Shown: positions 129-58,883, counted from the stretch's first letter. The stretch is 64,000 bases of DNA from an archaeon (GCA_041657425.1 JBBABY010000005.1:22834-86833); one strand, 5' to 3'. Notes: generated by a model not told the origin, from the sequence alone. Program-made: numbers and translations.

Positions 129-1835
129 ATGGCTGAAAAAGAAGTTACTAAGAAGGATACTAAGGAAGTTGCAAGAAAGGAAATAGGTGCTGACCAATTA
201 TTTACTGAGTTTAAAGAACATTCAGTAGCAGATTTCTTTAAGAAAAACAAGCAGATGCTAGGTCTTTCTGGTAAGCAAAGAACTTTAACTACAATAATAC
301 ACGAGCTTGTGACCAATTCTCTTGATGCTTGTGAAGAAGCAGGCATACTTCCTGAGATTGAGGTACACCTTTCTGAACTCGGTTCTGAATATTATGAAAT
401 TTCAGTAATGGATAATGGTCCAGGAATACCTGAAGACAAATTAGCAAGTGCTATGGGAAAACTTCTAGCAGGAACAAAATTCCATAGACTAGTACAAACA
501 AGAGGTCAACAAGGTATTGGTGTTAGTGGAATCATTCTTTTGTCTCAAATGACAACAGGGAAACCTACAAAAGTAATTTCTGGAACTAATACAGGAAAAA
601 CTGTTTCTATAGAAATTTCAATAGACAGTAAAACAAATACTCCAAAAGTTACAGACAAACATTATCTTGATAATAAACATAAAGGCTTAGCAGTTAAATG
701 TAAATTTAAAGACATAGTCTATAAGAAAGGACAAAACAGCGTTGATGAATATTTAAGAAGAACAGCAATTGCTAATCCTCACTTAACATTAAAGTTTGAA
801 GACCCAAGTGGAGAAATTACAAAGTACACAAGAACAATTAATAAACTTCCAAGTATCCCAACAGCAGTTAAGCCTCATCCAAGAGGAGTAACAGTTGATG
901 AAATGTTAACTTATGCAAGACATTCTCCTGCAAGAAAAGTTAATTCATTTTTAACAACAACATTTGATAGATTTGGACAAACATCAATTGATGGTGTTCA
1001 AGCATTAGCTCATTTTGATTTAAATAAAGATCCAAAGTCATTAACTTGGGAAGAAGCAGAAGATTTAATTAAAGCAATTAAACAAACGAAATTTATTGCG
1101 CCAAGTACAGATAATCTTGTTCCAATTGGAGAAGAGCACATACAGAAATCTCTAAAGGCAATTGTTAATCCTGAATTTTTAGCAGTAGTTACAAGAAAAC
1201 CATCAGTTTACCAAGGTGGTTATGCTTTCCAGATAGAAGCAGGAGTTGCTTATGGTGGTAATGCAGGAAGATTGATTTCTGTAGAAAAAACAAATGGTAA
1301 AGAAGTAGTGACAGAAGAAGTAAGGTCTTCTGAAATTATAAGATATGCAAACAAAGCTCCATTGTTATTTGATGCAGGCGGTTGTGCAATAACAAAAACT
1401 GTTGAATCAGTTGAATGGAAAAGATATGGTGTGAGTAATTTTGATAATAATCCAATCACTGTTTTTATTAATTTAATTTCAGTACACATCCCATACACTT
1501 CTGCAGGAAAGTCTGCAGTTTCTGATGACCCAGACATTGTTTCAGAAATAAAACTTGCATTAATGGAAGTTGCAAGAAAGGTTGGCTTCTACATTATTGA
1601 AAAGAAAAGAGAAGAAGAAAAGAAAGAAAAGAAAAAAGTATTTACAAAATATGCTCCGTATGTTGTAGAGGCATTAATCCACACAACTGGAGAAAAGAAT
1701 AAAGAGTTACTTCTAAAAAATCTAAATAACATGGTTCTTGAAAAACTAAAGATGGAAGAAGCAGGAATTAAAACTCCAGAAGATGAAGTTGTTGACGACG
1801 ACACAGTTGCAGAAGAAGAGGAGTTTGAAGAATAG
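129..1835 (+). CDS. top6B: DNA topoisomerase VI subunit B
   Basis: GHKL ATPase motifs (LVTNSLDA, MDNGPGIP, GQQGIGVSG); immediately followed by Top6A; acidic C-terminal tail; start moved to the ATG at 129 (track ORF begins at 120). Confidence 0.88.
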   Translation: MAEKEVTKKDTKEVARKEIGADQLFTEFKEHSVADFFKKNKQMLGLSGKQRTLTTIIHELVTNSLDACEEAGILPEIEVHLSELGSEYYEISVMDNGPGIPEDKLASAMGKLLAGTKFHRLVQTRGQQGIGVSGIILLSQMTTGKPTKVISGTNTGKTVSIEISIDSKTNTPKVTDKHYLDNKHKGLAVKCKFKDIVYKKGQNSVDEYLRRTAIANPHLTLKFEDPSGEITKYTRTINKLPSIPTAVKPHPRGVTVDEMLTYARHSPARKVNSFLTTTFDRFGQTSIDGVQALAHFDLNKDPKSLTWEEAEDLIKAIKQTKFIAPSTDNLVPIGEEHIQKSLKAIVNPEFLAVVTRKPSVYQGGYAFQIEAGVAYGGNAGRLISVEKTNGKEVVTEEVRSSEIIRYANKAPLLFDAGGCAITKTVESVEWKRYGVSNFDNNPITVFINLISVHIPYTSAGKSAVSDDPDIVSEIKLALMEVARKVGFYIIEKKREEEKKEKKKVFTKYAPYVVEALIHTTGEKNKELLLKNLNNMVLEKLKMEEAGIKTPEDEVVDDDTVAEEEEFEE

Positions 1836-1845
1836 GTGAACAATT

Positions 1846-3006
1846 ATGGTTGCAAAAAAAGAAACTAAATCTGAAAAAAAGCACGTTCATAAGGGTCTTG
1901 ATACTTATGAGACAGAAACAACTAAAGATATAGAACAAAGAACTCTTCAAATTGCTAAAGATATTGTTGATCAAATAAAAGGAAATAGATCTCCAACTTT
2001 TACAACAAAAGTTAGAGGTTTAAGTAATGTTTATTTTGATGATGAGAAACAATATATTCAATTAGGAGATAAAAAAGTTGTTAGACCTTTCTTAAATCTT
2101 GGAGCTGCAAGAAAGTTCATGCAAACAATGTTAATTAATGATAAATGTAATGAATATTTAAAAGAAGGAAAGACAGCATCAATCAGAGAAATTTATTATG
2201 AACTTAAAAGAACAGTAGCTAATACTAAAGAAAATACTTTCGATGGTCAGAATGAATCTGATGAAGTTATTGTTGATGTTGAGCACGCAGCAAGTACTAT
2301 TAGAGAAAAGTTAGGACTTCATGCTGAAGCAAAAGGTTCTCTTTATGGTGACATTACATTAAAAGATTTAAAACACGATGACGATATTTTCAATTGCGGT
2401 TCTCTAGGTAGGGGCGGTTGGAGTATTATGTCAAGAATCGAACCAGAAGAAGTTGAGATTGTTGATGTTAACGCAGATATGGTTTTAGTTATTGAAACAG
2501 CAGCAATGTACAATAGACTAATTGAAGAAAAGTTTGCAAAGCAACACAACGCAATTCTTATTGGAACAGGTGGTCAAGCAGCAAGAGGAGCAAGAAGACT
2601 TGTTCATAGATTAAGATACGAGTATGATCTTCCAGTAATTGTGTTTACTGATGGAGACCCTTACGGTTGGTATATTTATTCAGTTATCAAGAGTGGATCA
2701 ATGGCTCTTGCTGCTCACTCTAAATACATGGCAGTACCTGATGCAAAGTATGTAGGAATGACCATAACGGATGTTGAAACATACGGTCTTTCAAACGTTA
2801 CTGAAAAAATGAAAGACGGGGACATTAAGAGAGCAAAGGAATTAATGAATTATCCTTGGTTTAAGTCAAAAGAATGGCAATCTGAATTAAAAATTGCAAT
2901 TGATAAGAAAATAAGAATTGAACAACAGGCTCTTGCAAACAAGTCACTTGATTTCGTTGCAAGGAAGTATCTTCCAGAAAAGATTGAAAAAGAGATATTT
3001 TTATAA
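1846..3006 (+). CDS. top6A: DNA topoisomerase VI subunit A (Spo11-like)
   Basis: Spo11/TopoVI-A toprim region (VIVFTDGDPYGW); operonic with top6B 10 bp downstream. Confidence 0.88.
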   Translation: MVAKKETKSEKKHVHKGLDTYETETTKDIEQRTLQIAKDIVDQIKGNRSPTFTTKVRGLSNVYFDDEKQYIQLGDKKVVRPFLNLGAARKFMQTMLINDKCNEYLKEGKTASIREIYYELKRTVANTKENTFDGQNESDEVIVDVEHAASTIREKLGLHAEAKGSLYGDITLKDLKHDDDIFNCGSLGRGGWSIMSRIEPEEVEIVDVNADMVLVIETAAMYNRLIEEKFAKQHNAILIGTGGQAARGARRLVHRLRYEYDLPVIVFTDGDPYGWYIYSVIKSGSMALAAHSKYMAVPDAKYVGMTITDVETYGLSNVTEKMKDGDIKRAKELMNYPWFKSKEWQSELKIAIDKKIRIEQQALANKSLDFVARKYLPEKIEKEIFL

Positions 3007-3128
3007 AATTAAAAAGGATATAAAAAAGGTCAATCAAAAAGTCTTACAGTTCCAAGAGAAAATTTTAGAAAAACGAAACATTAATTCAGTATAAAAAAAT
3101 AACTGGTGAAAAAATAGCAGGAAGAGCA

Positions 3129-3344
3129 ATGACTGGGAGAATAAGAATTAAGCAAACGCCTAGAAGAGAACACCAAAAAATAACTGATTTAACAAAAAAA
3201 GCAAAAGTTACAGATTTTAGTCATTTAGAAGATTTGTCTGAAATTGAAATAGAAAATTTAGTAAAAATATTAAAACACAGTAATACAAGACCAAATAGTG
3301 CGACTAAAGTTAGACAAAAAAAAGACGTTACAACAAAAAGATAA
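3129..3344 (+). CDS. small basic hypothetical protein
   Basis: 71-aa ORF, Lys/Arg-rich; no recognisable family. Confidence 0.3.
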   Translation: MTGRIRIKQTPRREHQKITDLTKKAKVTDFSHLEDLSEIEIENLVKILKHSNTRPNSATKVRQKKDVTTKR

Positions 3345-3354
3345 CTGGTAAAAA

Positions 3355-3942
3355 ATGGTTATTAAAAGAGCACTCGATAGAAGAGCCGAATCTGTAAAAA
3401 TAAGAAACACTACTAATTCTAGAAAAAAATTTCAAGTAGGAACTAGATTTGTTTTAGATAAACAATTACTACATTTGAATAATGCGATATTAATTTCACA
3501 AAAAGACGCAGAATCCATCCTAATTAATTTTCTAAAACATAAGAAAACAACAAGATTTAGAGAAGATTTAAAGCTTACAGAAATAGAATTAGAAAATGGA
3601 GATAATTTAATAATTGATGAAAATGTAGAAAAGCAATATCTAAATTTAATTTCAAAAAGATCTGCAATTTTATTATCTCATGGAATAACGCCTTGGGCAC
3701 TTTTAGAAATTCTCCCTAAAGAAAAGCTTTACTATTCAGAAAATACAAAAAAATATTATGATTCATTCTTTAGTAAGTTTTTAAGATTTGAATTTGCAAC
3801 GATAGTATCAAAAAATCCAAAAGCATTTGGTAACATACAACTTAAACAAAAATTAAAGCAAGCATTTAAAGTTAAATTAACAGTTGCATTAAAAAAACTA
3901 GGATTTTCAACAGAATTTATTGATAATTTAGTTTTTGATTAA
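3355..3942 (+). CDS. hypothetical protein
   Basis: 195-aa ORF, no family recognised; follows 3129..3344 closely on the same strand. Confidence 0.4.
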   Translation: MVIKRALDRRAESVKIRNTTNSRKKFQVGTRFVLDKQLLHLNNAILISQKDAESILINFLKHKKTTRFREDLKLTEIELENGDNLIIDENVEKQYLNLISKRSAILLSHGITPWALLEILPKEKLYYSENTKKYYDSFFSKFLRFEFATIVSKNPKAFGNIQLKQKLKQAFKVKLTVALKKLGFSTEFIDNLVFD

Positions 3943-5163
3943 TTATATTGTTCTTAAATCTTTTTCTTTATCAGGAAGTATTTGGTTTAAAGTGATTCCA
4001 ATAACACTAGCTAAAGCAACTCCTCCAAACATAAAATCGCCAAAACTAATCATTGCTCCACCAACGCCAATTGTTAGCATTACCGCAACAATTACCATAT
4101 TTTTTGTGTGATTAAGATTTGTTTTCGATTCAATTAATGTTTTTATTCCAACAATTGTTATCATTCCAAAGAGTAATAACATCATACCGCCTAAGATTGC
4201 TTGAGGAATAGTATATAAAAATCCAGTAATTTTTCCTAAAAATGCAAAACAAATAGCAGTAATTGCTGCAATTCTCAAGATTACGGGATCTTTAAGTTTA
4301 GTTAAGATGATTGCACCAGTAACTTCAGAGTAAGTCGTTGTTGGTGTTCCTCCGACAAGCCCTGAAAAGAAAGTTGCACATCCGTCTCCAAACATAGTTC
4401 TTGAGAGTCCTGGATTTTTAACAAAATTAGTATTTGTGGCTTTACTGATTGCATACATATCTCCAATGTGTTCAATTATTGGGGCAATTGCTACAGGTAT
4501 TAAAAATAAAATTGCATTAATATTAAAGACTGGAGTTGCAAACTGCGGAATGGAAAACCATGGCGCATTTATTAATTTTGTAAAATCTACAAGTCTAAGA
4601 ACTATAGCAGCAATATAACTTACAATTAAACCAATAATTACTGGCAATAACTTAACAGTACCTTTACCAAAAACCACAACAGAAATTGCAGTAATTAAAG
4701 CAATACTTGCAAGTAACCAATTATTATTTGCCATTCCTACTCCTGTACTTGCAAGAGACATACCAATTATCATAATTACTGGCCCAACCACAATTGGAGG
4801 AAATAATTTTGAAAGAAATCCAGCGCCATTTCTTTTAACAATAAAAGACATAATCATATATACAATACCGACAGCCATTAATCCTCCAAGTGCCCCAGGA
4901 TAACCATATAATTCTGTGGCTTTAATAACTGGTGCAATAAAAACAAAAGAACTTCCTAAAAATACAGGCACTTTTCCTTTAGTAATAAAATGAAAAATTA
5001 AAGTTCCACAACCCGCAGTAAAAAGAGCAACAGCAGGATCAATTCCCACAAGAAGAGGAACAAGAACAACAGCACCAAAAGCCACAAAAAGCATTTGCAT
5101 ACCAATTATTATTTTTTTAAATATACTAAGTTTTTCTGTTTCTGTATTATTTTGATATTTCAT
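3943..5163 (-). CDS. nucleobase (uracil/xanthine) permease, NCS2 family
   Basis: Polytopic membrane protein with about 12 TM segments; N-terminal region resembles UraA/NCS2 (FGAVVLVPLLVG). Confidence 0.6.
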   Translation of the reverse strand: MKYQNNTETEKLSIFKKIIIGMQMLFVAFGAVVLVPLLVGIDPAVALFTAGCGTLIFHFITKGKVPVFLGSSFVFIAPVIKATELYGYPGALGGLMAVGIVYMIMSFIVKRNGAGFLSKLFPPIVVGPVIMIIGMSLASTGVGMANNNWLLASIALITAISVVVFGKGTVKLLPVIIGLIVSYIAAIVLRLVDFTKLINAPWFSIPQFATPVFNINAILFLIPVAIAPIIEHIGDMYAISKATNTNFVKNPGLSRTMFGDGCATFFSGLVGGTPTTTYSEVTGAIILTKLKDPVILRIAAITAICFAFLGKITGFLYTIPQAILGGMMLLLFGMITIVGIKTLIESKTNLNHTKNMVIVAVMLTIGVGGAMISFGDFMFGGVALASVIGITLNQILPDKEKDLRTI

Positions 5164-6461: not shown

Positions 6462-8510
6462 TTACTTTTCATTTCCCATTTTTTCTAATTTCAAAAGTTC
6501 ATTCCATCTTCTGTCTATTTCTTCCTGTATTGATTTAAGAACTGCTTTATTCTCTGGTTTTAAAACACTTTTAAATTTAGTTTGTGTTTTTAAGAATTCT
6601 TCAATTGGTAGTTTGTTTGTTGGTTTGTAATTGATAATTACTTTTCCATTAACCACTTCATAAAGAGGCCAAAAGCAAGTTTCAGTTGCAAGTTTACTTA
6701 TCTTAATTGTTTGTGAAGAATCTGCCTTCATGTTTGTTGGGCAAGCTGCAAATGCAATTAGAACTGCAGGGCCAGAAACATCAAATGCTTTCTTTGCTTT
6801 TTCAAATATATCAACTTGGTTAGAAGGATTAATTTGAGCAACATAAGGAATGTTATGAGCTGCTGCAATCTTTGTTAAATCTTTTGAGAACTCTACTTTA
6901 CCATAAGAACACTTCCCTGAAGGAGTTGTTGAGGTTATTGCACCCTTTGGCGTTGCTGAGCTTCTCTGGTTGCCTGTGTTGTGTACTACAACCCCATCAG
7001 CAATGAAATTATGTTCTCCTTCAACTCTTAAATCAAAGGTTTGTTCTTTGCCAACTTCTTTAATATTTTTTATAATTTCAGTATCGAAGTTTTCATTTCC
7101 AATCAAAAAGTTTTGATATTTATATTGTGTAGGATATTTAGTTGTATTCCAATAATCTTTTTTACTAAAACAAATATAGTGATATTCTGAATTTTTCAGT
7201 AATTTCTTTCCAACGACAAGAGTTCCTTTTTCTTTTTTTTGAGTTGTAATTTTACCAACTCTGTAATTAAGTGTCTGTAATAATAATCTTAATCTTAAGA
7301 TTAATTCTTTACTTGCAGACACATATCTACAACTATCTTTTTTCTTTTTATGAATATACCCGTCAGATAACAACAACCCTTCAATAAATGCTTCTTTTTG
7401 CTCATCTGGAATCGTATAAACCCAAGAAGGAATTATTTTATTCTTTGCACCTTTGTTAAATCCAAGGGATTCAATAAATTTAGTTATGTTAACTGAATTC
7501 ATATAGATGTAAGTTTTATCAGTAGTAATTGTCTTAAATCCAAATACTTTTTTACAAGTAGTTATACATTTTTCTCTACCCTCTGTTCCTTCAGGTAAGG
7601 CAAAACCTATTTCTCCTTTATCTCTAATCCAACCATCTCCAAGATAAAGTCCTAAGAATAACATTAAATCTGTTGTTGATTTTTCTGGTATTTTTACATC
7701 ATTAATTACATTTACTTTATAATCGCCTTTCTTTGAAAGTTGTATTTTTTCAAAAGTAAACGGTTTATTTCCTTTTAATTTCTTTAATGTAATTATTTGA
7801 TCTCCTTTTTTTAATTCTTCAAGTGTTTTCCAAATTAAAGTGTTTGGTTTTCCTCTTGGAAGTTTATTAACAACTAAGAATGGGTGATTTCCTGTTGCTT
7901 TGATGTTATGATGAAAAGTTTCAATTTCATAAACTTTCTTAACTCCATTATCAAACACACCACTGCATTTTTTCAGAACCAATTTGTGTGTTTTTTGATC
8001 AAATGCATAAACCATTTCTCCAACTTTAATTTCAGTTATTTTTTTAAGTCCGGTTTCTGTGTAAATTAATGAGTCTTTACTTAAGCAATTCATGTACCCT
8101 TCATTCGAATAACAAAGATAAACAAAATCATGTCCTCTTTCTAGTGCTCCAGATAAACTTTGAAGACCAATATCAAAACTTCCACCATCTCCAGCAATTA
8201 CTAAAAAATTAATGTCTTTTTTTATTTTTCCTTTTTTCTTTTGTGCTCTGTATGCACTTTCAACTCCAGAAATTGTTGCGGCAGAGTTTGCAAAAAGAGA
8301 ATGTATCCAAGGAATATTCCATGCAGTCTGTGGATAAACTGTTGTTGTAACTTCTGCACAAGAAGTTGCGCTGCTTGCAACAACTGGTTTGTCGCTTGCC
8401 GCAATCACAGTCTTACAAATAATTGCAATGGGGCACCCTGCACAAGTTCTGTATCCTGGAACCATTGCTTTACTTTCAGCTAATTTAATAGCAAGTTCTT
8501 TTGAGTTCAT
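6462..8510 (-). CDS. porB: pyruvate/2-oxoacid:ferredoxin oxidoreductase beta subunit (TPP-binding), intein-containing
   Basis: Exteins match PorB (IAGDGG, YLCYSNEGYMN|TGNQRS); a 370-aa insertion begins with Cys and ends in HN followed by Thr. Confidence 0.85.
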   Translation of the reverse strand: MNSKELAIKLAESKAMVPGYRTCAGCPIAIICKTVIAASDKPVVASSATSCAEVTTTVYPQTAWNIPWIHSLFANSAATISGVESAYRAQKKKGKIKKDINFLVIAGDGGSFDIGLQSLSGALERGHDFVYLCYSNEGYMNCLSKDSLIYTETGLKKITEIKVGEMVYAFDQKTHKLVLKKCSGVFDNGVKKVYEIETFHHNIKATGNHPFLVVNKLPRGKPNTLIWKTLEELKKGDQIITLKKLKGNKPFTFEKIQLSKKGDYKVNVINDVKIPEKSTTDLMLFLGLYLGDGWIRDKGEIGFALPEGTEGREKCITTCKKVFGFKTITTDKTYIYMNSVNITKFIESLGFNKGAKNKIIPSWVYTIPDEQKEAFIEGLLLSDGYIHKKKKDSCRYVSASKELILRLRLLLQTLNYRVGKITTQKKEKGTLVVGKKLLKNSEYHYICFSKKDYWNTTKYPTQYKYQNFLIGNENFDTEIIKNIKEVGKEQTFDLRVEGEHNFIADGVVVHNTGNQRSSATPKGAITSTTPSGKCSYGKVEFSKDLTKIAAAHNIPYVAQINPSNQVDIFEKAKKAFDVSGPAVLIAFAACPTNMKADSSQTIKISKLATETCFWPLYEVVNGKVIINYKPTNKLPIEEFLKTQTKFKSVLKPENKAVLKSIQEEIDRRWNELLKLEKMGNEK
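6978..8087 (-). other. intein with LAGLIDADG homing-endonuclease domain inside porB
   Basis: Starts CLSKDSLIY, ends VVHN with +1 Thr; LAGLIDADG-type blocks LFLGLYLGDGW and IEGLLLSDGY; interrupts the conserved PorB motif YMN-TG. Confidence 0.75.
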
Positions 8511-35129: not shown

Positions 35130-36089
35130 ATGAAAAATAATAATTACAAATTAATTACTTTTGCAATAGCGGCATTAGTAATTGGAGCAATACTTAGTAC
35201 ATTACTGATTAGTACAGTAAGTGCAGAAAAGACAGACCTTACAAATATAGATGCTCTTGAAATCACAGATCCAGAATCAAGAACAAATTTAATATTAAAT
35301 TTATTAAAAGTAAATAGAATACAAAATAGAAATAATAATCCATTATTTATTGATTCTAGTAATCAATTATCTATCAATGGAGATACTTATGTAAGTATTT
35401 CATCTCCAAACACTGCAAAATTAGGATCAGGAAATGCAGTAGTTAAAGCATTTGCTAATGGTCAAGAACAACAAGCCGGTTCAAAAGTAGAAATTAATGC
35501 AAATAATTTCTTTGTAGGACATGGTGGACAATCAGTATTTAAAATAATAGGCGGAGCTAACGAATACGGTGCACAATATTCTCAAGTAATAATAGAAACA
35601 GGAGTTCAAATGAACCATTATTTACAAGTTAATAATGGGCTTTATGCAGATGGCGCAAACATAGGCGAACATCATAATCAACCAGCATTACAAATTGTAA
35701 GAAATGGTCAATCCGGCAATTACACTTCAGAAATTACAATTAATGCTCCTACCAGATTTCCTAATCTTTCAGAAGGCGCCACCAATACTGGCGCAATATA
35801 TCATTTAGGAGATACTTTTCTTATAGAAAATTATACTGTAGAAGTTATGAATATTTGGGACGCAAATAACGCAGTTGAAATGCAATTAAGAAATGACGTT
35901 AATGGCATAATTGCAGAAGAAGTCTATAGTGAAGGAGATGCAATCTTTGAAGATTATCTTACCACAACTCTTATAGTAGATGGGATAGACTCAGATAGTG
36001 TAAGTATAGTTATACCATCAGGAAATACATACTATGCCTGTTTAACAGAAGACGGAACACTATTTAGAAGCAATGATCCTTGTAACTAA
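35130..36089 (+). CDS. secreted/surface protein, paralog family member A
   Basis: N-terminal TM/signal; shares module ESRTNLILNLLKVNRIQNR and about 95-aa C-terminal domain (GDTFLIEN...GNTYYAC...DGTLFRSNDPCN) with 37792..38628. Confidence 0.6.
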   Translation: MKNNNYKLITFAIAALVIGAILSTLLISTVSAEKTDLTNIDALEITDPESRTNLILNLLKVNRIQNRNNNPLFIDSSNQLSINGDTYVSISSPNTAKLGSGNAVVKAFANGQEQQAGSKVEINANNFFVGHGGQSVFKIIGGANEYGAQYSQVIIETGVQMNHYLQVNNGLYADGANIGEHHNQPALQIVRNGQSGNYTSEITINAPTRFPNLSEGATNTGAIYHLGDTFLIENYTVEVMNIWDANNAVEMQLRNDVNGIIAEEVYSEGDAIFEDYLTTTLIVDGIDSDSVSIVIPSGNTYYACLTEDGTLFRSNDPCN

Positions 36090-54129: not shown

Positions 54130-54205
54130 CAGTGATTTTTTATGAGAGCGCAACCGGTTTAGTTAACTAGAGAAGAAACGCCTATGAACTGGGCGAACAG
54201 TTAAA

Positions 54206-54288
54206 GCAGAGATGGCGGAGTGGCCAAACGCGCCAGCCTTGAGAGCTGGAGTCGAAAGACTACGCGAGTTCGAATCTCGTTCTCTGCG
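54206..54288 (+). tRNA. tRNA-Ser (TGA)
   Basis: Acceptor GCAGAGA/TCTCTGC, anticodon stem CCAGC/GCTGG with loop CTTGAGA, long variable arm, T-arm GCGAG-TTCGAAT-CTCGT. Confidence 0.85.
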
Positions 54289-54312
54289 CTTAAAATTGTT
54301 AAAAGATCATTT

Positions 54313-54651
54313 ATGTCAGAAGAAAAACCAATCATTACTTTTGATGATTTCATAAAATTAGACATAAGAATAGGAACAGTTATAGAAGCAGAAAAAGTAC
54401 CAAACAGTTCAAAGCTTCTAAAGCTAATAATTGACTTTGGAGATTTTAAAAGACAAATACTTGCAGGAATTGGTACCAAGTATTCTCCTGAAGACTTACA
54501 AGGTAAACAAATACCAGTAATAGTTAATCTTGCACCAAGAAAGATGGCGGGGTTAGTTAGTCAAGGAATGATTATGGCTGTAGGGGATAATGATGTGGAA
54601 GCTCTTTTGTTTCCAACAGAAGCCGTAAAATCAGGAAGTTCAGTTCACTAA
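54313..54651 (+). CDS. tRNA-binding protein (Trbp111/CsaA, EMAP-like OB fold)
   Basis: FIKLDIRIGTVIEAEKVPNSSKLLKLIIDFGD...QILAGI...GKQIPVIVNLAPRKMAGLVSQGMIMA matches the Trbp111/CsaA pattern; real start at the ATG at 54313 (the track ORF extends into the tRNA). Confidence 0.75.
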   Translation: MSEEKPIITFDDFIKLDIRIGTVIEAEKVPNSSKLLKLIIDFGDFKRQILAGIGTKYSPEDLQGKQIPVIVNLAPRKMAGLVSQGMIMAVGDNDVEALLFPTEAVKSGSSVH

Positions 54652-54936: not shown

Positions 54937-55070
54937 TTTAGTTGTGTGTCGATAAGCAACCAGTTAGTGCCATACAAATTCTGGCTGGGCGCCAACTCAG
55001 GAAAACAAAAGTTTTCAGGATGCCAAGAAATCGCAGCGACGATTTGTTGTGCACGACCGCAACCGGTTGT

Positions 55071-55153
55071 GCAGAGGTGGTGGAGTGGTCAAACGCACTA
55101 GCCTGGAAAGCTAGAGTCGAAAGACTACGCGAGTTCGAATCTCGTCCTCTGCG
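55071..55153 (+). tRNA. tRNA-Ser (GGA)
   Basis: Acceptor GCAGAGG/CCTCTGC, anticodon stem CTAGC/GCTAG with loop CTGGAAA, long variable arm, same T-arm as tRNA-Ser(TGA). Confidence 0.85.
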
Positions 55154-55369
55154 ATTAAATTTAGATCAACAGTTTGCTGTAAGTGAGCTTGTAGACTGGA
55201 TTAAAGGCAAGAAGCTCGCCCACGACTACGAAACAGGACTAATTTCTAAAATCCCGCTAATCTTCGAAGATACTCAAAAACATACGTACGTTTCTGAAAA
55301 GTGTTCTCAACAAAATCTTTTTAAATACAATATACAATAACTATTTATAGAAATAAAGTGTGATAAAAA

Positions 55370-56111: not shown

Positions 56112-57509
56112 TTATTTCAAAAACACACACTCTTCATTTTTTATTCGCGGATATTTTTTGTTTGACCAAGCAATTGTTCCACCAGAAATGTGAATAGCAT
56201 TATATCCTTCAATAATTAAATTTTTTGCAGCTTTAAAGGACTTTTCTCCAGTTTCACAAATAAGATAGATGTTGTTTTCTTTTTTTATTTTTTGTTTATA
56301 GTTTTTTATAAAAGCATCCATCGGTATGTTTGTAAATCCAGGAATGTGATAATCCCCAAATTTATTTTCAATTCTTAGGTCTATAAAAATATTGTTTGGA
56401 TTTCTTTTAATGTCTGTATTTAATTTTTCAGAATAGGTTTCTTTAAGTATTTTATAAAGTTTAGTTACAGTTATAGAATCTACTTTATCTTTTGTATGTT
56501 TAGTTGTAATTTCATAAGGAAGTAATTCTTTGTTAATTACTTTTGGAAAATCAGACGTTGGAAGATATGAAAAATATTCATCTAGATATGGTAATGGCGT
56601 GTCGTAACAAATAAATACGCAAGTTTTATTCTTAAGTTTATTTCTCTTAATATATTCTAATAACCCTGCAAGAGCAAACCCAGAACTTGGGCCAACTAAT
56701 AATCCGCTTCTAATTAATTTTAAGCTTTGGGTATAAGATTCAACACTTCCAATCTCGATAATATCATCTGCATTATTCTTCCAATCAAAAGCAATCATTT
56801 TCAAAAGATTTTTTGTTCTAACGCCTGGTACTAAGTTATTTGGTTTTCTTATTACCCCTATTGCCTTGAGGTTATCGTTTTTCTTCTTTAAGTAATTACT
56901 AGTTCCAAGAAAGGTTCCAGTTGTTCCAAGTCCTGAACAAAAGATATCAATCTTTCCATTTGTTTGAATCCAAATTTGTTTTCCTGTTATCAAACTATGC
57001 GAATTAGGATTATTTAAATTATCATATTGTCCAAAGTTAATATATTTCTCAGATTTAGCCATTTGTTTAGCCTTATAGATCCCGCTATTTTCATCATCTG
57101 GATCTGGACAAATTGGTTCATTATTAATAATCGGAGTAATCCCAAATAACCTTAGCATATTTAATTTATTTTTTGTAACTTCATTTGAAACAAATGCTTT
57201 CATTGAATTTAATCCATAATGCCTGCCAATTATTCCTAAAGAATAAGCAGTATTCCCTGAAGAATTTTCTATGATTGTAGGTTTATTTTGTAATTTCTTT
57301 TGAATATGTGCTGAATTAATCATCTCATATGCAGGAATAGATTTAATATTAAGTAAAGGCAAAGTGTTTTGTAATTTTGCAAATATTCTAATCCCATTTT
57401 TTCTAAAAGGATTACATTTATCATCAAGCTCTACAAGAGGAGTCATATGATTATGAGGATTGATATAATCCTTTATTGCATTCTTTCCAGAATAAACATT
57501 ATTTTTCAT
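56112..57509 (-). CDS. PLP-dependent cysteine synthase/CBS-family enzyme fused to C-terminal rhodanese domain
   Basis: PALP motifs (TPLVEL, SSGNTAYSLG, GLGTTGT) followed by a rhodanese module with active-site loop YLICETGEKS. Confidence 0.65.
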   Translation of the reverse strand: MKNNVYSGKNAIKDYINPHNHMTPLVELDDKCNPFRKNGIRIFAKLQNTLPLLNIKSIPAYEMINSAHIQKKLQNKPTIIENSSGNTAYSLGIIGRHYGLNSMKAFVSNEVTKNKLNMLRLFGITPIINNEPICPDPDDENSGIYKAKQMAKSEKYINFGQYDNLNNPNSHSLITGKQIWIQTNGKIDIFCSGLGTTGTFLGTSNYLKKKNDNLKAIGVIRKPNNLVPGVRTKNLLKMIAFDWKNNADDIIEIGSVESYTQSLKLIRSGLLVGPSSGFALAGLLEYIKRNKLKNKTCVFICYDTPLPYLDEYFSYLPTSDFPKVINKELLPYEITTKHTKDKVDSITVTKLYKILKETYSEKLNTDIKRNPNNIFIDLRIENKFGDYHIPGFTNIPMDAFIKNYKQKIKKENNIYLICETGEKSFKAAKNLIIEGYNAIHISGGTIAWSNKKYPRIKNEECVFLK

Positions 57510-57515
57510 AATCTT

Positions 57516-58460
57516 TCATTTAAATTTAAAATTAAGATCGATCTGAGAACTTAGATCTCCAAATCTGTCTTTAATGCTTGGTTGAGAAACATATTTCGTG
57601 TGTAATAATTGAAGTCTAGACAATCTTTTGTTTGGGTCAGGAGTAATTTTATTAATCTCTAAATATAGTTTTTCTAATACTTCTAAATTGTTAGTTTCAA
57701 ATTTATCTAAAGTAACTGCCCCACCGTACTTATCAAGTAATTGTAGATATTTAGAATCTCTAATAAATCCAATTATTTTTTCTGCACCAACATTGTCTAT
57801 TAAAAATTTTAAATCATCTTCATTTTTTATTTTATTTCCAAGAATAAAGAAATTATCAACATTGTTTTTGCTTAAGTTTTCAAACATTTTAAACAATTCT
57901 ACACTTTTTTTTGTAGGCTCTACAATTAGTACAATTGCATCAAACTGCAAATGCATTGAAGATGCAAATAAATCTGTTCCTGCAACCATGTCAGAAACTA
58001 TATATTCATTTTTATCGTATGTGTGACTAAGAATAATTTCTAAAATTTCAAGATTGTTATGATAACAACTAGTTCCTACACCGTGGACTTCATAAGTTCC
58101 AACAACTGCTAAGTATGCATTATCTGAAATCTCTTTACAGAAATTAGAAATAAAATAATCTTCTTTAGTAATTGTTATTAATTTAGAATTAACAGAAGGA
58201 GGAGTAGTCTTTCTAAATTCGTCATTATTTTTTATAAGATCGTTTGTTCCTTTTAAGTAGTTTTTAATTTTTAATTTTAGATTATTATTTGAAATATATT
58301 CTTCAGAAGACACTGTACAATTAAATAACTCAGGAAGATGCACATTTATGTCTGCATCAATCACAAGTACAGGTTTTCCTTTAGAAATAATTAATTTACT
58401 AAATAATGCAGAAAGGGTAGTTTTACCAACGCCGCCTTTCCCAACAAATGCTATTCTCAT
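57516..58460 (-). CDS. CooC/MinD-like P-loop ATPase
   Basis: Deviant Walker A AFVGKGGVGKTT, DADIN motif, CooC-like Cys region HGVGTSCYHN; start moved to the internal Met at 58460 because the upstream 17 codons lie in AT-rich promoter-like DNA. Confidence 0.6.
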   Translation of the reverse strand: MRIAFVGKGGVGKTTLSALFSKLIISKGKPVLVIDADINVHLPELFNCTVSSEEYISNNNLKLKIKNYLKGTNDLIKNNDEFRKTTPPSVNSKLITITKEDYFISNFCKEISDNAYLAVVGTYEVHGVGTSCYHNNLEILEIILSHTYDKNEYIVSDMVAGTDLFASSMHLQFDAIVLIVEPTKKSVELFKMFENLSKNNVDNFFILGNKIKNEDDLKFLIDNVGAEKIIGFIRDSKYLQLLDKYGGAVTLDKFETNNLEVLEKLYLEINKITPDPNKRLSRLQLLHTKYVSQPSIKDRFGDLSSQIDLNFKFK

Positions 58461-58491
58461 ACATATATATATTTTTCTTCCTTTATATATA

Positions 58492-58510
58492 TTAATGATA
58501 ACCATTATCA
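58492..58510 (+). promoter_or_regulatory. Fur-box-like operator TTAATGATAACCATTATCA
   Basis: 16/18 match to the classical Fur box core ATAATGATAATCATTATC; inverted repeat TGATAA-N3-TTATCA; sits between divergent fur and the ATPase/Cys-synthase-rhodanese operon, 14 bp before the fur ATG. Confidence 0.6.
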
Positions 58511-58523
58511 ATAAGGATAAAAT

Positions 58524-58883
58524 ATGTCTAAATCAAGAAGAACTATACAAAAAGAACTAATTTTAAAAGAAATAGAAAACATGAAAGTTTTCTTCTCTGC
58601 AGCAGAACTTTATAGTAGAATTAATTCTAAACACAAAATTGGTATTGCAACAATATATAGAATTCTTAATCAGCTAACTAAAGATTATATTATTTATTCA
58701 TTTGTTTGCGATAAACGAAACATTTATTCAAAACACGGAAGAAACCACTGCCATTTCGTTTGTGAAGATACTGGCGAAATTATTCATTTTAATATAGATT
58801 CTTTAGATTTCTTAAAAGATAAACTTCCTGGAAAAATTATTTCTTTTCAAATAGAAATAAAAGGTATTAAAAATAAGAAATAA
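58524..58883 (+). CDS. fur: Fur-family metalloregulator
   Basis: N-terminal wHTH (SAAELYSRI...IGIATIYRILNQL) and metal-site region HGRNHCHFVCEDTGEIIHF. Confidence 0.75.
   Translation: MSKSRRTIQKELILKEIENMKVFFSAAELYSRINSKHKIGIATIYRILNQLTKDYIIYSFVCDKRNIYSKHGRNHCHFVCEDTGEIIHFNIDSLDFLKDKLPGKIISFQIEIKGIKNKK

Follow-up and report, generated by a model that had tools for sequence, protein, structure and literature searches.

Between a gene for a Fur-family protein and a divergent operon encoding an ATPase and a PALP-rhodanese fusion lies a palindrome that closely resembles the bacterial Fur box. This raises three connected questions: whether the site is an operator at all, which metal its regulator would sense, and whether one or both of the flanking transcripts fall under its control. 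The original prediction was drawn from the sequence of a 64,000-nucleotide stretch of archaeal DNA (hereafter the window) and took the site to be a near-consensus Fur box conferring autoregulated, metal-responsive control on both sides. The elements of the locus are as follows.

56112..57509, minus strand: second gene of the divergent operon, a 465-aa fusion of a PALP domain (CysK/CysM/SbnA-like) with a rhodanese, 6 nt past the ATPase gene
57516..58460, minus strand: first gene of the divergent operon, a 314-aa CooC-like P-loop ATPase (Pfam CbiA; CbiA/ArsA-type)
58461..58523: 63-bp intergenic region acatatatatatttttcttcctttatatataTTAATGATAACCATTATCAataaggataaaat between the regulator ATG and the divergent ATPase ATG
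58482..58489: archaeal TATA box TTTATATA, lying 2 nt (TA) before the operator, with 21 nt separating it from the ATPase ATG
58492..58515, plus strand: predicted 24-bp operator TTAATGATAACCATTATCAATAAG, an 11-1-11 imperfect palindrome centred on 58503
58496..58510: inverted repeat TGATAA-CCA-TTATCA (TGATAA-N3-TTATCA), equally a 7-1-7 Fur-type motif, TGATAAC-C-ATTATCA
58524..58883, plus strand: gene for a 119-aa Fur-family regulator (Pfam PF01475), probably of the Zur type

The operator and its conservation

Direct reading of the sequence places the 19-mer TTAATGATAACCATTATCA at 58492..58510, with 13 nt between it and the regulator ATG at 58524. The agreement with the Fur box ATAATGATAATCATTATC at 16 of 18 positions, as originally reported, is borne out by direct comparison, and the inverted repeat TGATAA-N3-TTATCA is indeed perfect at 58496..58510. 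The site also matches the 19-mer Fur box of E. coli, GATAATGATAATCATTATC, at 16 of 19 positions and differs from AATGATAANNNTTATCATT by a single mismatch. The exact palindrome occurs once in the 64 kb against an expectation of 0.04, and just 4 of 100 dinucleotide shuffles contained any; similarly, a search for the E. coli box with up to three mismatches returned one match in the window, the operator itself, against 0.13 expected. A 15-mer palindrome with one mismatch allowed is expected 1.14 times per window and is not rare, so the weight is carried by the exactness of the repeat and by its location. In DNA of about 29% G+C, the motif as seen in the window sequence alone is suggestive, and not conclusive. 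Rfam and tRNA scans of the window returned five tRNAs and no match at the operator site. Among these are tRNA-Ser genes at 54206..54289 and 55070..55154; the ORFs at 54201..54479, 54220..54651 and 54942..55340 overlap tRNAs at least in part and may be spurious.

Orthologous promoters are far more informative. We collected 79 loci encoding relatives of the regulator from GTDB species genomes (689 kb in total) and built an operator matrix from 63 aligned orthologous sites, leaving the window site out. To be called, a site had to reach 13 bits and lie no further than 130 nt upstream of the regulator orthologue. On this basis the operator was found upstream of the regulator orthologue in 75 of the 79 DPANN loci, and shuffled copies of the same 689 kb yielded zero sites at or above 13 bits. 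The window operator scores 24.7 bits with the orthologue-derived matrix; the next-best site in the window reaches 11.6 bits, and shuffled windows gave a mean best score of 9.4 and a maximum of 16.8. An unbiased count of 10-mers in the upstream regions led to the same element: all fifteen of the most frequent 10-mers tile the operator, and one of them, TTATCAATAA, is present in 36 of 79 upstream regions as against 12 of 5205 control blocks, an enrichment of about 200-fold.

It had been reasoned that absence of the motif from orthologous promoters would suggest a chance occurrence in AT-rich DNA, and this is not what we find. That the site is a chance palindrome in 29% G+C DNA may be dismissed on the orthologue data, even though a 15-mer with one mismatch is expected about once per window, since an exact match is expected only 0.04 times, the element is kept in 75 of 79 orthologous promoters despite protein identities of about 50%, and its k-mers are enriched about 200-fold. 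The 24-bp element is almost certainly a genuine operator of a Fur-family repressor, and its predicted role as the operator of the adjacent protein, with autoregulation, is well supported by conservation.

The only other candidate that the matrix raised in the window was the 11.6-bit site at 35347..35370 (TTATTGATTCTAGTAATCAATTAT), which was rejected as lying within an ORF and not rising above shuffles. Its arms, ATTGAT-N7-ATCAAT, are those of the operator, and the ORF that contains it (35130..36089) encodes 319 aa.

The orthologous sites also define the form of the element. The family consensus is TTATTGATTCTCATTATCAATAAG, with G6, T15, T17, C18, A19 and T21 invariant in all 63 aligned sites. 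Its arms, TTATTGATTCT-C-ATTATCAATAA, form an 11-1-11 imperfect palindrome and are complementary at the eight outer positions; in the TATA-proximal arm, positions 9 and 10 are T and C/T where symmetry would need AA. The window operator carries the symmetric AA at these positions, giving TGATAAC-C-ATTATCA, and it is for this reason that it so strongly resembles the bacterial Fur box. Its outer arm has one mismatch (TTAATGAT). A DPANN promoter between a ZIP gene and a regulator gene (L152, from a metagenome scan) shares the same TGATAACCATTATCA core, which indicates that variation at the inner positions is tolerated. The conserved element runs to 58515 (…TCAATAAG), 5 bp further to the right than first described, and in many orthologues its 3' end lies at most 4 nt from the regulator ATG.

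The metagenome scan with the operator pattern gave a mixed return. It added about 15 promoters of the DPANN regulator type, again with ZIP or ZnuA as partners, together with many symmetric boxes TTATTGATAATNATTATCAATAA on contigs of higher G+C, and no additional ATPase locus. One contig (L111), which may be archaeal, carries a site identical to the window operator at 491..514 and a second strong site at 851..874, 360 bp apart. A TATA box precedes neither of them, and the roughly 25 nt that come after each resemble one another (…AAGAA-N-TGAGTGCNTTTAACA), perhaps as a repeat or an unannotated small gene.

The regulator and its metal

The regulator is recognised by the Pfam FUR model PF01475 with 59.8 bits (cut-off 23.1, E 3.7e-16, residues 5-103). 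Its AlphaFold model (pLDDT 89, pTM 0.77) has the architecture of a winged-helix DNA-binding domain joined to an alpha/beta dimerisation domain, and Foldseek returns a probability of 1.00 to structures of Fur, PerR, Mur and Zur, with TM-scores up to 0.68. The solved structures of C. jejuni Fur, M. tuberculosis Zur, S. coelicolor Zur and B. subtilis PerR match similarly by sequence (E 4e-14 to 4e-12), C. jejuni Fur being the best of them, and an NCBIfam equivalog search found only sub-threshold Fur, PerR and Irr models. Sequence and fold agree with Fur, Zur and PerR alike and single out no class. The conserved residues are H75-C76-H77, C80, C62 and H88, and the H75-C76-H77 stretch corresponds to no single Fur-family class. 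In this subfamily the first CxxC pair has become C80-x-x-T83 (CxxT), so that the canonical Cys4 zinc site is incomplete. The window protein, moreover, ends in …GIKNKK (58869..58883) without the Cys pair that is kept in at least 90% of its relatives. The structural Zn(Cys)4 site of two CxxC pairs, which occurs in many though not all Fur members, is thus not found in the window regulator.

Relatives of the regulator, 83 in number, share 48-63% identity with it, are 117-139 aa long and come from metagenome-assembled archaea. Their genomes are named Woesearchaeota, Nanoarchaeota, Aenigmarchaeota and Micrarchaeota, from which it follows that the window belongs to a DPANN archaeon. A profile of 77 subfamily members searched against 1.8 billion representatives returned 28 clusters (50% identity) at E<=1e-30, beyond which it drops to a plateau of about 1e-14 that constitutes the rest of the Fur family. 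Judged by this profile, the subfamily is a discrete, separate clade within the Fur family.

The metal is best approached through the genes that share the operator. In 69 of the 79 loci a gene is divergent from the regulator across the same intergenic region, and by Pfam these partners include 36 ZIP transporters, 24 ZnuA proteins, 4 CobW/COG0523 proteins, 1 CbiA-type ATPase and 1 TIM. Iron-uptake or iron-storage Pfam families are absent from all 69. Half of the partner ZnuA proteins (12 of 24) contain a His-rich stretch, defined as at least 5 His in 25 residues. Operators that stand apart from the regulator gene precede ZnuA (L043, L065) and COG0523 (L063, L065), and in L011 one is situated between the genes for a ZIP protein and a second regulator paralog. 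A further locus (L019) has two operators before unknown proteins and a third site with no assigned ORF.

Zinc importers of the ZnuA and ZIP types, together with COG0523, form the core of Zur regulons, and His-rich ZnuA and COG0523 are regarded as zinc-regulon markers (PMC6103462, PMC2770081). The zinc-acquisition genes that would be expected behind a Zur operator are thus present in the orthologous loci. The window itself has no ZIP, ZnuA or COG0523 gene in its 64 kb, and the assignment of zinc consequently rests on the orthologues. We read the regulator as a Zur because its partners are zinc importers and COG0523 without iron families, and on this gene context zinc is very probably the metal that it senses. 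The label of Fur box in the original prediction therefore holds for the form of the box; as a sign of control by iron it probably does not, for a regulon of ZIP, ZnuA and COG0523 points to zinc.

A classical iron Fur, in which Fe(II)-Fur represses its own gene and the divergent operon, has in its favour the resemblance of the site to the E. coli 19-mer (16 of 19) and to the 9-1-9 Fur box AATGATAATNATTATCATT (16 of 18; PMC2706843), the rank of C. jejuni Fur as the best sequence match among solved structures, and the many symmetric boxes TTATTGATAATNATTATCAATAA that the metagenome scan drew from higher-G+C contigs. Set against these, none of the 69 promoter-sharing partners belongs to an iron-uptake or iron-storage Pfam family and 64 of them are ZIP, ZnuA or COG0523, and His-rich ZnuA and COG0523 mark zinc regulons (PMC2770081, PMC6103462). 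We consider an iron Fur very improbable.

Another Fur-family signal, be it manganese (Mur), nickel (Nur), peroxide (PerR) or a broad response to divalent metals, is also improbable. The ZIP and ZnuA families do include carriers of manganese and iron, the ATPase targeted in the window is CooC-like and CooC itself acts as a nickel chaperone, and the H75-C76-H77 stretch of the regulator fits no single class. Furthermore, bacterial loci with the same ATPase/PALP-rhodanese pair have a different Fur gene and boxes of Nur-like form, TGCAA-N5-TTGCA (PMC2691836). Nevertheless, COG0523, His-rich ZnuA and ZIP occurring together are characteristic of zinc, neither peroxide-defence nor nickel-transport genes were seen at the operators examined, and the DPANN operator is of the n-1-n type, not the 6-5-6 Nur type. 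Ribosomal-protein paralogs were likewise not seen at operators.

Reading the regulator as a zinc sensor also brings some uncharacterised proteins into view. The two unknown proteins of L019 (485..1513 and 1581..3821, both on the minus strand) have no Pfam match, and an operator lies 33 nt from each start codon; one has 342 aa, and the other 746 aa with low complexity and a Cys/His-rich C-terminus. Both are candidates for new zinc-acquisition or surface proteins. In L043, a 100-aa membrane protein with a GCPCCG motif (4658..4960), for which no NCBIfam match was found, is encoded between the operator and the regulator gene and looks to be co-transcribed with it.

Promoter architecture and the divergent operon

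As homologues indicate an archaeal host, the logic of a sigma-70 promoter was dropped in favour of TATA/BRE. Among the 63 aligned sites TTTAWAWA is conserved at -9..-2 relative to the operator, and in orthologue loci the TATA variants TTTATAAA, TTTAAATA and TTTATATA all end 2 nt before it. Distances from the divergent ATG to the operator cluster in two ranges: 31-33 nt (40 loci, with ZIP, COG0523 and ATPase partners as examples) and 43-45 nt (another 13 loci, with ZnuA partners as examples). With 31 nt between the ATPase ATG and the operator, the window belongs with the first group. Where the one gene served by a site is on the minus strand (L019 at 1547 and 3855, L033 and L063), the order of gene, about 20 nt, TATA box, 2 nt and operator is preserved. 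Hence the position of the operator is fixed relative to the TATA box and to both start codons, the reference points being start codons and not mapped transcript starts. A histogram of TATA positions before the window ORFs was sparse and is consistent with short or absent leaders, nothing more. The geometry suggests that a single TATA box serves both divergent transcripts.

In the mechanism that we infer from sequence, conservation, geometry and gene neighbours, a dimer of the metal-loaded regulator would bind the 24-bp palindrome at 58492..58515. The regulator transcript would start about 26 nt past the TATA centre, at around 58512 within the 3' end of the operator, and would have a leader of about 12 nt. 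The operator would then span about -20 to +4 of the regulator promoter, and its occupation would block recruitment of RNA polymerase and result in autorepression; archaeal repressors block polymerase recruitment from such a position between TATA box and start. In the opposite direction, the placement of the TATA box 21 nt from the ATPase ATG implies that the ATPase mRNA would be leaderless, with its start at or beside 58460. For this promoter the operator would lie on the BRE side of the TATA box, at about -32 to -55, and bound repressor would be expected to hinder the assembly of TFB and TBP. Scarcity of the metal would derepress both divergent transcripts. Sites upstream of the TATA box can also activate in archaea, and for the ATPase operon the effect may be repression or activation. 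Taken as a whole, the model of a zinc-sensing (Zur-type) DPANN repressor acting through one operator and one TATA box in both directions is probably correct.

The ORF of the first gene of the divergent operon begins MRIAFVGKGG at 58460, and the N-terminus MRIAF agrees with homologues. The best solved relative is CooC1 of Carboxydothermus (3kje, E 2.2e-27), a nickel-insertion ATPase with which the window protein shares the deviant Walker A motif GKGGxGKT. An invariant C132-Y-H134 aligns with the 'CYC' of CooC1, whose CxC motif binds the metal at the CooC dimer interface. The window ATPase differs from CooC1 in having C-Y-H (CxH) in place of the CxC metal-binding motif, in an extra 70-aa C-terminal region and in its constant PALP-rhodanese partner. 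At least 716 database entries are related to it, many of them under the name CO dehydrogenase maturation factor; CODH/ACS genes were not seen in any of the ATPase neighbourhoods examined. The second gene matches Pfam PALP (9.5e-37) and Rhodanese (2.3e-9) and falls below the cut-off of all NCBIfam equivalogs (cysKM 151.5 versus 344; SbnA-family 116.8 versus 350); with CysK and CysM it shares only the PALP fold and the SSGNT loop. MscL is encoded downstream in the window neighbourhood.

The association of the two genes is constant: each of the seven look-ups that covered more distant homologues showed a PALP-rhodanese gene after the ATPase gene, and one was also called in L211-L213. In three loci a gene for an Orn/DAP-decarboxylase-like PLP enzyme is inserted between them, giving a three-gene variant of the operon:

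L020, 175..3972: three-gene operon variant
L024, 1095..2609: three-gene operon variant
L033, 4240..5601: three-gene operon variant

The presence of this enzyme hints at small-molecule biosynthesis. In L020 the variant is followed by genes for a 254-aa protein and a PEP-utilising mobile-domain protein. In L089, where no Fur-family gene is nearby, a cation-diffusion facilitator (Cation_efflux + ZT_dimer; 7467..8378) directly follows the ATPase/PALP-rhodanese pair and represents another link to metal.

Is this operon, then, controlled by the operator? The site does lie within the promoter region of the divergent operon, as predicted, and abuts the TATA box at 58482..58489. The predicted control of the ATPase and Cys-synthase-rhodanese genes is plausible on geometry and on three further loci. 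The 31-nt gap of the window is that of the group in which zinc-gene partners (ZIP and COG0523 among the examples) are found, and L020 has the same divergent regulator/ATPase layout as the window. Between the ATPase ATG and the operator there are 31-32 nt in L020 and L033, compared with 86 nt in L024. The operators before the ATPase operon in L024 and L033, which score 36.8 and 16.6 bits, are not in the regulator's own promoter. However, control is not conserved. In the two nearest relatives (81% and 90% ATPase identity; L211-L216) a TATA box is retained equally far from the ATG, yet no site there reaches 12 bits and a regulator gene is not found alongside, and any regulatory link would consequently be lineage-specific. 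On balance, operator control of the ATPase operon is fairly likely in the genome of the window.

This leaves some room for an operator that serves the regulator gene only, the neighbouring ATPase gene having arrived by an accident of rearrangement with no regulatory effect. Such an accident would accord with the retention of the TATA box, at the same distance but without operator or regulator, in L211-L216, and with the finding that the ATPase operon is near a regulator gene in only 4 of 80 loci (the window, L020, L024 and L033). It is harder to reconcile with a 31-nt gap that falls within the 31-33 nt peak of 40 loci, or with the L024 and L033 operators that stand before the ATPase operon and away from the regulator's own promoter. 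In addition, a protein that sits 2 nt away from a TATA box would hardly be expected to have no effect. We regard this alternative as doubtful, and favour control of both transcripts.

The same gene pair occurs beyond the DPANN loci. In 5 of the 7 look-ups it lies on contigs with bacterial-looking neighbours (possibly CPR), adjacent to a different Fur-family gene whose product has 20-23% identity to the window regulator; this gene is often followed by one for a YibE_F membrane protein. The DPANN operator was not found in these bacterial-type ATPase loci, where the box is a different one. Pairs of TGCAA-N5-TTGCA, 47 bp apart, are positioned directly upstream of the ATPase gene in L080 (5947/5994), L087 (4914/4961) and L088 (4905/4952), and L085 has one such box (5921), against a background of 4 matches in 1.45 Mb. 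The Streptomyces Nur box, tTGCaa-N5-ttGCAA, has the same form (PMC2691836). Accounting for both kinds of locus, the ATPase/PALP-rhodanese module looks to be metal-related in two domains of life. It is tempting to speculate further that it constitutes a metal-limitation module common to DPANN and CPR-like bacteria, in which a CxH metallochaperone ATPase works with a fusion of a CysK-like domain and an active rhodanese and which Zur-type and Nur-like sensors have captured independently, though this is a tentative and rather unlikely proposal. If true, the module might make a sulfur-containing metal ligand or load metal onto a target.

Relation to known systems

The mechanism that we propose is of a known kind, namely a Fur-family repressor acting on a Fur-type box by promoter occlusion. 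The bacterial Zur regulons of B. subtilis, E. coli, M. tuberculosis and S. coelicolor likewise employ a Fur-family repressor and an AT-rich pseudo-palindrome over the core promoter, their targets likewise include ZnuABC, ZupT/ZIP and COG0523, and divergent regulator-transporter pairs are common among them (PMC6103462). Unlike these, the DPANN box is found beside a TATA box and not over -35/-10 elements, the Cys4 site is incomplete and the dependence on zinc is a prediction. The box also differs from the gamma-proteobacterial Zur box AATGTTATANTATAACATT in being of the TGAT…ATCA Fur type (PMC2706843). With the classical Fur box (in both its 19-bp and 9-1-9 descriptions) the window site shares the n-1-n geometry; in contrast to that box, the DPANN consensus is asymmetric, with a TATA-proximal inner half of TTCT and not TAAT, extends outward to TTATTGA…TCAATAAG, and is linked to genes for zinc and not iron.

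Among archaeal metal repressors, the DtxR-type MDR1 of Archaeoglobus is also of a bacterial type and works by steric exclusion at an archaeal TATA/BRE promoter, but it differs in subfamily and signal. SisPerR of Saccharolobus islandicus is likewise a bacterial-type repressor that acts on an archaeal TATA/BRE promoter by steric exclusion, though of another subfamily and with another signal (PMC11724291). The same can be said of the predicted DtxR-like ZntR of Methanosarcina, also a bacterial-type repressor at an archaeal promoter and also of a different subfamily and signal (PMC2770081). The archaeal genomes available at the time of that prediction were stated to be without Fur/Zur homologs, and a DtxR-like regulator was predicted instead (PMC2770081); a 2024 survey found PerR homologs to be scarce in DPANN (PMC11724291). 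Among the papers searched we found no specific report of a DPANN or archaeal Zur and nothing specific on the ATPase/PALP-rhodanese module. Relative to these papers, what is new is the proposed assignment of zinc to a widespread DPANN subfamily, the operator matrix with its TATA-adjacent bidirectional layout, and the probable inclusion of the ATPase/PALP-rhodanese operon among the regulated genes of some lineages.

Little has been described of how archaea regulate zinc. The window and the 79 related genomes provide, for the mostly uncultured DPANN, a testable regulator-operator pair with its precise matrix, a promoter layout and a first regulon list. They also offer a compact model in which a lone TATA box could allow one repressor of bacterial type to silence divergent archaeal promoters on both sides. 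Lastly, the link to the ATPase/PALP-rhodanese operon draws attention to genes without an assigned function that may have a part in the metal homeostasis of archaea and bacteria with reduced genomes.
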